From: a virus
Lineage: Duplodnaviria > Heunggongvirae > Uroviricota > Caudoviricetes
IMG/VR virus record: IMGVR_UViG_2896589216_000002
Direction: 5' to 3' (one strand)
Length of the DNA stretch: 34,924 bases
Shown: positions 22,966-25,894 of the stretch, in pieces
How positions within the stretch are numbered: the first letter of the stretch is position 1
Layout: each line of letters opens with the position of its first letter
Made by a program: the position numbers and the translations under genes
Notes under the pieces: generated by a model
The model's database searches: none
The model's input: only the letters and a program-made list of their open reading frames with translations
What the model was told of the DNA's origin: nothing

Positions 22966-23685
22966 CCATGGTTCGGCCGGAGCAAGAAGCATCGCCACAA
23001 TGGCAACCCGGAGAGGCTACCAGATGGGACGCTGGCTTGCTGGCAGGCTCATGAAAGAGCTGGGGCTGGTCAGCTGTCAGCAGCCGACTCACCGGAATAA
23101 ACGTGGTGGTCATGAACATGTTGCTATCCCTAACTACCTTGAAAGGCAGTTCGCCGTGACCGAGCCAAATCAGGTGTGGTGCGGTGATGTGACCTGTATC
23201 TGGACGGGTAAGCGCTGGGCGTACCTCGCCGTTGTTCTCGACCTGTTCGCAAGAAAACCAGTGGGCTGGGCCATGTCGTTCTCGCCGGACAGCAGGCTCA
23301 CCATGAAAGCGCTGGAAATGGCATGGGAAACCCGTGGTAAGCCCGGCGGGGTGATGTTCCACAGCGATCAGGGCAGTCATTATACGAGCAGGCAGTTCCG
23401 GCAGTTATTGTGGCGATACCAGATCAGACAGAGTATGAGCCGGCGCGGAAACTGCTGGGATAACAGCCCAATGGAACGCTTCTTCAGGAGTCTGAAGAAC
23501 GAATGGATGCCGGTGGTGGGTTACGTAAGCTTCAGCGAGGCAGCTCACGCCATAACGGACTATATCGTTGGATATTACAGCGCACTAAGACCGCACGAAT
23601 ATAACGGTGGGTTACCCCCAAACGAATCGGAAAATCGATACTGGAAAAACTCTAACTCGGTGGCCAGTTTTTGTTGACCACTTCA
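22966..23685 (+). mobile_element. IS911 partial copy (3' ~720 bp), 5' part deleted
   Basis: Matches 3' part of full copies; right IR ...ccagtttttgttgaccacttca ends at 23685; orfB fragment reads to 23677. Confidence 0.9.
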
Positions 23686-23694
23686 ATGGCGACA

Positions 23695-23910
23695 TTATTC
23701 ACCTCTCGCAGCCTTACGCTTATCTTCTCTTATTTTGAAATACAGATTCGTCAGATAAGTCAGAAGCCCCAGAAGCAGACTTCCCAGCACACCAATCGCA
23801 GCCCACTGTGATGGACTGACCTGATCCAACCACTGCAAAAACCAGTAGCCGGCACTGCCGGCGGAGGTGCCGTAGGCAATGCCCGTTGAAATTTTGTCCA
23901 TGGATTTCAT
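23695..23910 (-). CDS. phage-21-type pinholin (S21 family), 71 aa, dual-start motif MKSMDK
   Basis: Near-identical to the S21 holin as I recall it ([30 protein letters not shown]...); second Met at 23901. Confidence 0.8.
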
Positions 23911-24202
23911 AGCCTCACCTCCGCAAATAACGGATGGCGTAGTTTTACACTGAGAAATGAAAGGGATTTGAAAAGAAAAAAACGCAAAAGCGGGCGAAAC
24001 GATATATACAGTAAGGAAAGCACTCTATCCAACAAACCACCCACAGTTAATCGGAATAAAAGCAGAGTGCTTATGAATGATCGCACGCCCGAAGGTTAGT
24101 ATTTCTGCACAGCAATTTTGCAAAAAAAGGCGATCATTCATAACTTAAACGTCTTTCAGTCACTCCGGGATTTCCCATCATCGCAGACTGAAAGACTCTG
24201 AC

Positions 24203-24277
24203 TGGAGCGGGCAGCGGGAATCGAACCCGCATCATCAGCTTGGAAGGCTGAGGTAATAGCCATTATACGATGCCCGC
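24203..24277 (-). tRNA. tRNA-Gly (anticodon UCC), glyT-like
   Basis: Cloverleaf GCGGGCA...TGCCCGC, anticodon loop CTTCCAA, encoded CCA. Confidence 0.85.
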
Positions 24278-24280
24278 ATA

Positions 24281-24357
24281 TGGTGCCGACTACCGGAATC
24301 GAACTGGTGACCTACTGATTACAAGTCAGTTGCTCTGCCTGCTGAGCTAAGTCGGCG
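24281..24357 (-). tRNA. tRNA-Thr (anticodon UGU)
   Basis: Acceptor GCCGACT/AGTCGGC, anticodon loop CTTGTAA, T-loop TTCGATT, CCA; one T-stem mismatch. Confidence 0.8.
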
Positions 24358-24359
24358 CT

Positions 24360-24436
24360 GGCCCACCACCGAGGACTCGAACCTCGCACCGTCAACTTAG
24401 AAGGTTGATGCTCTATCCGGATGAGCTAGTGGTGGT
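24360..24436 (-). tRNA. tRNA-Arg (anticodon UCU), phage argN/argO-like
   Basis: Anticodon loop CTTCTAA, T-loop TTCGAGT, CCA; unusual C1:G72 acceptor pair. Confidence 0.8.
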
Positions 24437-24437
24437 T

Positions 24438-24514
24438 GGTGGCCCTTGCTGGACTTGAACCAGCGACCTGGCGATTATGAGTCGCTCGCTCTGACCAACT
24501 GAGCTAAAGGGCCG
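24438..24514 (-). tRNA. tRNA with CAU anticodon, ileX/ileZ-like (probable tRNA-Ile2; Met not excluded)
   Basis: GGCCCTT acceptor, anticodon loop CTCATAA, T-arm GCTGGTTCAAGTCCAGC resembling E. coli ileX. Confidence 0.7.
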
Positions 24515-24593
24515 GAGGCAGAATAATAACCATATGTCATCACATCTGCAAACTCATCTGACCACCAGCACGTTTAACGTCCTGTGCCGTTTT

Positions 24594-25493
24594 TCATTTC
24601 AGGTATAAAAAAACCCGCATAAAGCGGGCTCTTTCAAATGTCCATGTGAAGTGGTCAACAAAAACTGGCCACCGAGTTAGAGTTTTTCCAGTATCGATTT
24701 TCCGATTCGTTTGGGGTAACCCACCGTTATATTCGTGCGGTCTTAGTGCGCTGTAATATCCAACGATATAGTCCGTTATGGCGTGAGCTGCCTCGCTGAA
24801 GCTTACGTAACCCACCACCGGCATCCATTCGTTCTTCAGACTCCTGAAGAAGCGTTCCATTGGGCTGTTATCCCAGCAGTTTCCGCGCCGGCTCATACTC
24901 TGTCTGATCTGGTATCGCCACAATAACTGCCGGAACTGCCTGCTCGTATAATGACTGCCCTGATCGCTGTGGAACATCACCCCGCCGGGCTTACCACGGG
25001 TTTCCCATGCCATTTCCAGCGCTTTCATGGTGAGCCTGCTGTCCGGCGAGAACGACATGGCCCAGCCCACTGGTTTTCTTGCGAACAGGTCGAGAACAAC
25101 GGCGAGGTACGCCCAGCGCTTACCCGTCCAGATACAGGTCACATCACCGCACCACACCTGATTTGGCTCGGTCACGGCGAACTGCCTTTCAAGGTAGTTA
25201 GGGATAGCAACATGTTCATGACCACCACGTTTATACCGGTGAGTCGGCTGCTGACAGCTGACCAGCCCCAGCTCTTTCATGAGCCTGCCAGCAAGCCAGC
25301 GTCCCATCTGGTAGCCTCTCCGGGTTGCCATTGTGGCGATGCTTCTTGCTCCGGCCGAACCATGGCTGATGCCATGTAGCTCAAGTACCTGACTGCGTAA
25401 TACAGCCCGTCTGCCGTCTGGTTTTTCAGGACGGTTTTTCCAGTATCTGTAGCTGCTGCGATGAACCCCGAACACTTGGCAGAGTGTGACCAC
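24594..25493 (-). CDS. IS911 OrfB with altered C-terminus (C4 instead of C5 run); reads through the IS end into flank
   Basis: Compared with the partial copy (C5 at 23615-23619, stop inside IR), this copy has ttggggtaac at 24711-24720. Confidence 0.7.
24605..24630 (-). terminator. rho-independent terminator (tR'-like) upstream of the tRNA cluster
   Basis: Minus-strand hairpin cccgctttatgcggg followed by T7. Confidence 0.6.
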
Positions 25494-25894
25494 AGGATAA
25501 TGCGCTCTGAGTTTCCCGATTATCGAGAACAGTTCAGGGAGTCTGACATCAAGAGCGCGGTAGCCTTTTTTAATATTTCATTCTCCATTTCAATGCGTTG
25601 TAGCTTTTTCCTCAGCTTACGTATTTCGATTTGTTCTGGTGTTATCGGAGAGGCTTTTGGTGTTTTGCCCTGACGCTCATCACGCAGTTGTTTGACCCAT
25701 CTTGTCATTGTGGAAAGGCCAACATCCATAGCTTTGGCGGCATCTGCCACCGTGTATTTCTGGTCAACAACCAGTTGAGCGGATTCGCGCTTAAACTCTG
25801 CGCTAAAATTTCTTTTTTTCATTGGAGCACCTGTGTTGTTCTGAGGTGAGCATATCACCTCTGTTCAGGTGGCCAAATTCAGTGTGCCACTTCA
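24647..25894 (-). mobile_element. IS911 copy 2, 1248 bp, both IRs present; flanks atg / ctg (no perfect duplication)
   Basis: IRR tgaagtggtcaacaaaaactggccaccgag at 24647; IRL complement ending at 25894. Confidence 0.9.
25520..25822 (-). CDS. IS911 OrfA, 100 aa
   Basis: Starts [21 protein letters not shown]. Confidence 0.9.

Follow-up and report, generated by a model that had tools for sequence, protein, structure and literature searches.

A terminator-tRNA-pinholin segment between inverted IS911 copies in Shigella dysenteriae 14 as a probable passive remnant of a lambdoid prophage

The 961-bp segment and its components

The stretch of DNA analyzed here (34,924 nucleotides; IMG/VR record IMGVR_UViG_2896589216_000002; referred to below as the window) corresponds to Shigella dysenteriae 14 ATCC 49346 (CP026832.1, locus L005), to which it is 100% identical over 20 kb and whose sequence was obtained as a PacBio assembly (PMC10132075). 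The element under study is a 961-bp segment (23686-24646) which carries on its minus strand an intrinsic terminator, four rare-codon tRNA genes and a pinholin gene of the phage 21 type, and which is flanked by a truncated copy of the insertion sequence (IS) IS911 (22966-23685, plus strand) and by a full-length IS911 (24647-25894, minus strand). An original prediction, made by a model from the nucleotide sequence without database searches, had recognized these parts, and both their identities and their coordinates were found to be correct to the base. From left to right, the locus contains the following features:

22966..23685, plus strand: truncated IS911 (copy 1), the 3' 720 bp with part of orfB (rve domain) and the right inverted repeat (IRR), whose tip at 23685 abuts the holin end of the segment
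23686..23695, minus strand: remnant of a signal-arrest-release (SAR) endolysin gene, ATGTCGCCAT, being three codons plus 1 nt, its start overlapping the holin stop
23695..23910, minus strand: class II holin/antiholin of the phage 21 pinholin type (71 aa, PF04971)
23911..24202, minus strand: spacer between tRNA-Gly and the holin, conserved and strongly structured as RNA
24277..24203, minus strand: tRNA-Gly(TCC/UCC), by ARAGORN and Rfam
24356..24281, minus strand: tRNA-Thr(TGT/UGU), by ARAGORN and Rfam
24435..24359, minus strand: tRNA-Arg(TCT/UCU), by ARAGORN and Rfam
24513..24437, minus strand: tRNA-Met/Ile2(CAT), by ARAGORN and Rfam
24523..24552, minus strand: sigma-70 promoter-like element, TTTGCA-18-TATTAT, 9 nt upstream of the first tRNA
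24602..24636, minus strand: intrinsic terminator, with a hairpin (24636..24606) and a U7 tract
24647..25894, minus strand: full-length IS911 (copy 2) with orfA, orfB and both inverted repeats (HTH_Tnp_1 and rve domains)

The holin product matches PF04971 ('Bacteriophage P21 holin S') with 121.8 bits (cut-off 26; E=1.1e-35), is identical to S21-71 of phage 21 at 68 of its 71 positions (96%; the differences being V46L, F49L and R64K), and begins with the dual start MKSMDK (Met1-Lys-Ser-Met4) exactly as S21-71/S21-68 does. This degree of identity to S21 suggests a protein with two transmembrane domains, the first of which would be able to leave the membrane. Past the holin stop codon the window reads TAATGTCGCCAT and then continues into IS911, while at the same point the prophage of E. 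coli FDAARGOS_943 (L004), which served as reference, and its uninterrupted version (L016) read ATGTCGCCATCATTACGC..., which translates as MSPSLRKAVAVAIGGG, the N-terminus of an R21-like SAR endolysin. IS911 is placed after the first nucleotide of endolysin codon 4.

The four tRNA genes score 56-70 bits against Rfam RF00005 (gathering score 29; E<=1e-9), and the 3' CCA is encoded by every one of them; the CAT tRNA is annotated in relatives as tRNA-Ile (lysidine type) by the Prokaryotic Genome Annotation Pipeline (PGAP). Such tRNAs decode AUA, AGA/AGG, ACA and GGA, all of them rare codons in E. coli. In 11 other loci from E. coli/Shigella-type genomes the sequence is exactly the same over the 350 nt that begin with the promoter-like -35 and finish with tRNA-Gly, and most E. 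coli genomes contain several similar cassettes (median 3 places per genome). In a subset of genomes resembling enteroinvasive E. coli (EIEC) the fourth tRNA is tRNA-Val(TAC) and not tRNA-Gly(TCC), as in FDAARGOS_943 (L004 17211-17282); the two are four substitutions/indels apart and appear to be anticodon-switched variants of one gene. A literature search on ileZ/argN/argO and on the tRNAs or holins of ipaH prophages returned nothing useful.

The spacer that separates the tRNAs from the holin gene folds to -92 kcal/mol (z=-4.2) and holds an inverted repeat of 13 nt (TATGAATGATCGC/GCGATCATTCATA). The spacer is also conserved in phage 689R5, which retains an intact hairpin (GCCCGC-TTTT-GCGGGT) followed by a T-run approximately 50 nt before the holin ribosome-binding site, a structure that is weakened in the window and in all close relatives (GCGTT versus GCGGG in 689R5).

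A simple terminator scanner missed the hairpin at the other end of the segment, perhaps on account of a stem which reaches into the U-tract, and folding was performed with ViennaRNA instead, yielding -18.4 kcal/mol (z=-5.4), a value equalled by 0 of 200 shuffled sequences. In intact relatives this terminator is located about 60-70 nt after the stop codon of Q, and its place is that of the annotated late terminator of phage 21, of which it appears to be the positional equivalent (tR'). Rfam, applied to the segment at a permissive E-value, returned nothing beyond the tRNAs, a sub-threshold Trp-leader match being a reflection of the terminator. One change alone is specific to the window, namely 5 nt inserted (24597-24601) between the terminator and the promoter-like element.

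Taken alone, TTTGCA-18-TATTAT is no better than shuffled sequence. A dedicated sigma-70 promoter for the tRNAs, which the original prediction had also proposed, nevertheless has reasonable comparative support, short of proof, because the element holds its position across diverged phage contexts. It is kept unaltered in L012 and L003, which have a different Q and a different terminator sequence; phage 689R5 has TTGCAA-17-TATTAT at the same distance in upstream sequence that is otherwise unrelated, and PhiR49_2 has TTGAAG-17-TATTAT, again at that distance, within the end of a methylase gene. Among the IMG/VR classes, L049 has TTTGCA-18-TACTAT and L051 has TTGAAA-16-TATTAT about 30 nt further upstream, while no promoter-like element of this kind was found in L035. 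The tRNA genes are intact and are probably transcribed from this promoter of their own.

Collinearity with the parent prophage

The original prediction had described the fragment as an orphan. The window was aligned to the reference prophage L004, whose genes are arranged as int, early region, replication, nin, Q (DUF1133), four tRNAs, class II holin, lysozyme (split by IS600) and Rz, followed by terminase, portal, head, neck, sheath, baseplate, fibres and ipaH3. The order in an intact phage of this kind is Q (DUF1133 type), pR', tR', four tRNAs, S, SAR endolysin R, Rz and terminase, followed by head, neck and tail, and ipaH. The correspondence of the window to L004 and the neighbouring features are given below:

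20359-22963: L004 31068..28464, minus strand, 99.6% identity
22618..22956, minus strand: first surviving neck/tail gene (112 aa), next to the deletion junction at 22963-22965
23686-24647: L004 17801..16846, minus strand (terminator, tRNAs and holin)
30015..32984, plus strand: L004 5265..8282, plus strand; early-region remnant of the same prophage, with Rha/ASH, cI/Cro-like helix-turn-helix (HTH) and YdaT genes, inverted with respect to the late fragment
32985..34211, plus strand: third IS911 copy, whose left inverted repeat (IRL) abuts the early-region remnant and whose last ~21 bp are cut off by IS1

The minus-strand match to L004 runs on leftwards through the tail genes. The piece with the terminator, the tRNAs and the holin thus lies in its native order and orientation upstream of the neck and tail genes that belong to the same prophage, and the designation as an orphan does not apply. 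What is missing between the two is L004 17802-28463 (10.7 kb; endolysin, Rz, terminase, portal and head), which is replaced by the truncated IS911, and on the other side L004 8283-16845 (8.6 kb; replication, nin, Q and pR') is absent from the window. The early-region remnant stands 5 kb from the late fragment, beside the third IS911. At least 38% of the non-IS bases of the reference prophage survive in the window, and the survival of any given 1-kb piece is therefore unremarkable.

The early-region remnant also contains, on the minus strand at 30677-30866, matches above the Rfam gathering score to the C4 antisense RNA (78.6 bits) and to isrK (63.8 bits), adjacent to each other and within or upstream of the Rha/ASH-type gene. 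This pair corresponds to the antirepressor control of the P1/P7-like, immI type, which some lambdoid prophages possess.

The loss of Q, pR', endolysin and Rz, which had been noted from the sequence, is borne out. In a tblastn search of the 34.9-kb window with three Q types (DUF1133, 82/21 and lambda), two endolysins, Rz and TerS, the best match had E=0.27. The 61 nt from the Q stop (or from an ORF6N moron) to the start of homology with the window are common to L004, L016 and L001; they contain a TTGC(T/A)T-17-TTCAAT motif that overlaps the Q stop, and they are lost from the window, where IS911 takes their place. By Pfam the Q proteins of the relatives belong to DUF1133, with a weak Phage_antitermQ match; Q21 itself is not a DUF1133 protein, Pfam assigning it to Phage_antitermQ. 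As read from position, the IS911 insertion would lie in the pR' leader, with pR' itself lost. What is left is neither a complete pinholin/SAR-endolysin system, the endolysin being reduced to the few nucleotides listed above, nor a Q-dependent late operon.

Taken together, these data make it very probable that the 961-bp segment has survived passively from the late regulatory and lysis region of a lambdoid prophage of the ipaH type whose tail was myovirus-like. Across the 858 nt that run from the promoter to the holin stop codon it is 100% identical to the corresponding DNA of the intact prophage L016, and this lack of divergence points to a recent decay and provides evidence neither for nor against purifying selection.

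IS911 copies, history of decay and alternative explanations

The assignment of the flanking elements to IS911 is based on near-identity (the arms are 99.7% identical to the PGAP-annotated IS911 of E. coli VL7S7), on terminal inverted repeats (TGAAGTGG...), on orfA (HTH) and orfB (DDE/rve), and on an A6G slippery site, which in copy 2 is AAAAAAG at 25563-25569 (minus-strand sequence). The inverted orientation that had been claimed for them is confirmed, the arms 22966-23685 (plus) and 24647-25365 (minus) differing by 1 mismatch and one 1-bp indel in 720 nt. The claim of two flanking IS911 copies holds in full for the right one, which is complete; the left one is a 5'-truncated stump, devoid of IRL, orfA and the 5' part of orfB, at the junction of the 10.7-kb deletion, and the pair does not constitute a composite transposon. 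Two inward-pointing IRR tips face the segment, the holin stop being 9 nt away from one IS end and the hairpin 10-15 nt away from the other. The IRR tip of copy 2, at 24647, abuts the terminator end of the segment, and the transposase genes of this copy are directed at the segment.

Relative to the truncated copy and to the IS911 of VL7S7, copies 2 and 3 have lost 1 bp from a C/G run close to the 3' end of orfB (24710-24716 and 34158-34163, respectively). The orfB frame of copy 2 (open reading frame (ORF) 25493..24594, minus strand) then continues beyond the IS and through the terminator hairpin to a stop at 24594.

From these observations we infer an order of events in which two IS911 elements would have inserted in opposed orientation, right end towards right end, one of them into the pR' leader at 10-15 nt ahead of tR' and the other after the first nucleotide of endolysin codon 4. 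Later IS-associated events would have removed the upstream 8.6-kb block from replication to pR', as well as the downstream 10.7-kb block from endolysin to head along with ~530 bp from the start of the downstream IS911, and the early region would have been inverted between two IS911 copies, so that the remaining piece would be whatever stood between the two insertion points. Such a history of deletion and IS911-IS911 inversion is the most economical one because reversing an inversion between copies 2 and 3 restores the order early region, IS911, tR'.

Some observations weigh against this reconstruction. The pR' of the relatives is a putative assignment made from a motif and its position. Flanks were searched for target duplications that would pair the IS911 ends and allow the events to be rebuilt, and no matching flanks were found: a 3-bp duplication is present at none of the IS911 copies (CAG/CAT at copy 2, CTG at the IRL of copy 3, ATG at the IRR of copy 1). 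Their lack is as expected after recombination or deletion; because of it, single insertion or recombination steps cannot be reconstructed with certainty. Furthermore, the site where the truncated IS911 meets the phage DNA exists as two alleles, with a 720-bp arm in the window and in L006 (...GAACCAT/GGTAGGCTGAAATGG; window 22963-22967) versus a 517-bp arm in L008 (...CACACCTG/GGTAGGCTGAAATGG; L008 6735-6750), and these are not explained by a simple one-step deletion. Both alleles have the same phage-side nucleotide and GGTA, the latter being found in 0 of 8 E. coli relatives (which read TTATGGCTGAA), and IS911 and phage share an 8-nt microhomology (ATGGCTGA) at the junction. It may be speculated that template switching from one inverted arm to the other, with a return at a GG microhomology, extended the arm from 517 to 720 bp, which would fit the sequences.

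The original prediction had warned that an unpartnered pinholin is potentially toxic. S21-68 forms about 1,000 heptameric pinholes with collapse of the proton-motive force (PMC9636201), and expression of the holin would therefore be harmful even without an endolysin. The same promoter-tRNA-spacer-holin DNA is present in lysogens which retain the SAR endolysin and Rz (L012, L016 and L017); since it is tolerated there, transcription from the tRNA promoter without Q would be below the lethal level. The sole new transcriptional input at this locus is read-through from IS911, which meets tR' 10-15 nt past the IS end. Because there is no Q and no pR', because tR' would block IS911 read-through and because lysogens tolerate the same DNA, the pinholin gene, intact as it is, is most likely silent, and toxicity appears unlikely in practice.

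Independent insertions into this region recur in other EIEC/Shigella-like genomes. In EIEC VL7S7 (L003 12001-13330) an IS911 lies ~60 nt after the holin and everything downstream is deleted; in FDAARGOS_943 (L004 17903-19166) IS600 is located at about endolysin codon 38; and in L009 (3190-6000) and L014 (4442-6000) IS3-family elements lie between tRNA-Gly and the holin. The four tRNAs are intact in all of these copies. Selection against a working lysis cassette, an insertion hot spot or plain high IS activity would each be consistent with the recurrence.

Among the alternatives to a passive remnant, the one that survives best, though we consider it unlikely, is that Shigella has domesticated the four tRNA genes, along with the promoter of their own, as a constitutive source of additional rare-codon tRNAs for A+T-rich virulence genes acquired by horizontal transfer (pINV, ipaH), the IS insertions here and in L003, L009 and L014 reflecting selection to disarm the Q-dependent lysis genes while keeping the tRNAs. 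The integrity of the tRNAs, with their CCA ends and good scores, the constant position of the promoter-like element across diverged contexts and the persistence of all four tRNAs in the IS-damaged copies (the window, L003, L008, L009 and L014) would agree with this possibility. However, a fragment 100% identical to an intact prophage has had no time for decay and hence carries no signal of purifying selection, the equally 'useless' holin and terminator were kept alongside the tRNAs, a cassette as small as 311 bp is easily missed by random IS hits, and several similar cassettes exist in most E. coli genomes. Because of the identity over 858 nt and because at least 38% of the prophage survives regardless, no selection signal can be read from the locus, and the suggestion that the tRNAs are the selected cargo finds no backing. 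In a sub-variant of this explanation, translation of the orfB frame that crosses tR' (stop at 24594) might override termination there and let some transcription pass into the cassette.

Far less probable is an invertible or mobile module, in which the inverted IS911 pair would act as a RecA-dependent switch or as a composite transposon. Arms of 720 bp with 99.7% identity at a distance of 961 bp are ample for RecA, and the neighbouring early region, apparently inverted between copies 2 and 3, indicates that such inversion seems to occur here. The invertibility originally proposed is to that extent upheld as a plausible mechanism. Yet the truncation of the left copy and the inward IRR tips make the segment no transposable unit, there is no site-specific recombinase gene beside it, and a flip would alter no promoter-gene relationship and have no obvious consequence, IS911 sequence being present on both flanks; moreover, a single orientation is found in both long assemblies (CP026832.1 and UYIT01000003.1). 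The short junction sequences are identical in either orientation and cannot discriminate between them, so that orientation was read from these two assemblies, a comparison which speaks to the predominant orientation and not to low-frequency flipping.

That collapsed or mis-joined IS911 repeats gave a false juxtaposition is scarcely credible even in a region as repeat-rich as this one (three IS911, three IS66-family elements and four IS1 in 35 kb), since the source is a PacBio assembly, the same arrangement is present in an independent 2.19-Mb contig (L008, UYIT01000003.1) and the truncated-IS911/phage junction also occurs in a draft contig of a third assembly (L006), and the junctions of these two agree with those of the window.

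The passive remnant favoured above lies in a window which, besides the three IS911, the three IS66-family elements and the four IS1 (whole or partial), contains an IS600 end and an IS3-family element of the size of IS2. The IS66-family copies (1-2357, 17911-20360 and 26355-28741) are ~2.4 kb in length and 99.8-100% identical, and one of them splits a tail-sheath gene (DUF3383/E217_gp31). The IS1 copies or fragments are found at 4462-5229, 15839-16606, 26233-26364 and 34212-34924, one being only 91% identical to the others. The 1.33-kb IS3-family element in the fibre region (7176-8501) is a probable IS2, judged only by its size and the layout of its ORFs. A 337-bp island of non-IS DNA (25895-26232; ORF 26246..25803, minus strand) separates IS911 from an IS1 fragment; it is conserved in L008, and its product resembles the N-terminal arm-binding/SAM-like part of a phage integrase (Pfam matches below cut-off); no nucleotide match was found between this island and the int stretch of the reference prophage in L004. 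The stretch 29680-30018 had been considered to combine the end of an IS600 with 65 bp of lysozyme sequence also present in FDAARGOS_943; this was rejected, as all of it is the IS600 left end (orfA and inverted repeat). The proposal that inactivation of the endolysin predated the IS911 events was withdrawn, since the supposed lysozyme remnant is IS600 sequence.

Comparison with known systems and significance for Shigella prophages

In the late region of phage 21, which is annotated from experiments (OL657228.1), the -35 of pR' lies at 7 nt after Q and transcription starts ~40 nt after Q, the terminator standing immediately past the transcription start and being followed by the tRNAs and by S21. 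The comparison with phage 21 and with the intact prophage L016 confirms the same terminator-tRNA-S layout: the window shares with phage 21 the order of terminator, tRNAs and S and a holin that is 96% identical and has a dual start, and in the relatives the gene downstream of the holin is an R21-like SAR endolysin. By contrast, phage 21 has tRNA-Asn/Thr whereas the window has Ile2, Arg, Thr and Gly; the tRNA abuts the terminator in phage 21, whereas here a 95-nt spacer with the promoter-like element intervenes; the relatives of the window prophage carry a DUF1133-type Q; and the R21 SAR endolysin, Rz/Rz1, Q21 and pR' of phage 21 have no counterparts here, where Q, pR', R and Rz are deleted.

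The Shiga toxin (Stx) phage 933W reportedly carries ileZ-argN-argO between pR'/tR' and stx/S. The window is similar to this type in having rare-codon Ile2 and Arg(UCU) tRNAs downstream of a late terminator and upstream of S, and the weaker BLAST matches were dominated by Stx-phage records; it differs in having no stx, in carrying Thr and Gly tRNAs in place of the second Arg, and in no longer being a functional phage.

Comparable cases are the defective stx lambdoid prophage of S. dysenteriae 1, which is bracketed by IS, and the lysis remnants of the cryptic prophages DLP12 and Qin of E. coli K-12. As in these cases, a late fragment is stranded between IS copies or deletions and cannot lyse the cell; the present one belongs to another serotype and another prophage, has no toxin gene, and retains the holin as the sole survivor of the lysis cassette.

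Expansion of IS1, IS2, IS4, IS600 and IS911 together with genome degradation is characteristic of Shigella (PMC7373316). The window fits the account of IS degradation in the same organism group, in which expanded IS interrupt or delete genes (Hawkey et al. 2020, PMC7373316), but the present locus is not described in that study, in which phage regions were excluded from the phylogenies, and an IS66-family element is prominent here. Every component of the segment is 96-100% identical to a characterized element, namely the S21 pinholin, IS911 and a lambdoid rare-codon tRNA cassette as in Stx phages, and the arrangement is a textbook outcome of IS expansion. It is therefore regarded as ordinary IS-driven prophage decay in Shigella, a known phenomenon and not a new system.

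The locus represents a clean and fully mappable case of the dismantling of a Shigella prophage by IS911, IS1, IS600 and IS66-family elements, a process which leaves islands of intact phage DNA, any one of which an annotator risks taking for an independent module. If the tRNAs are expressed, four rare-codon tRNAs would be added to the pool of the host, which would be relevant to codon-usage models of Shigella virulence genes; such an effect on tRNA supply, if true, would be modest and of a kind that has been suspected for a long time.

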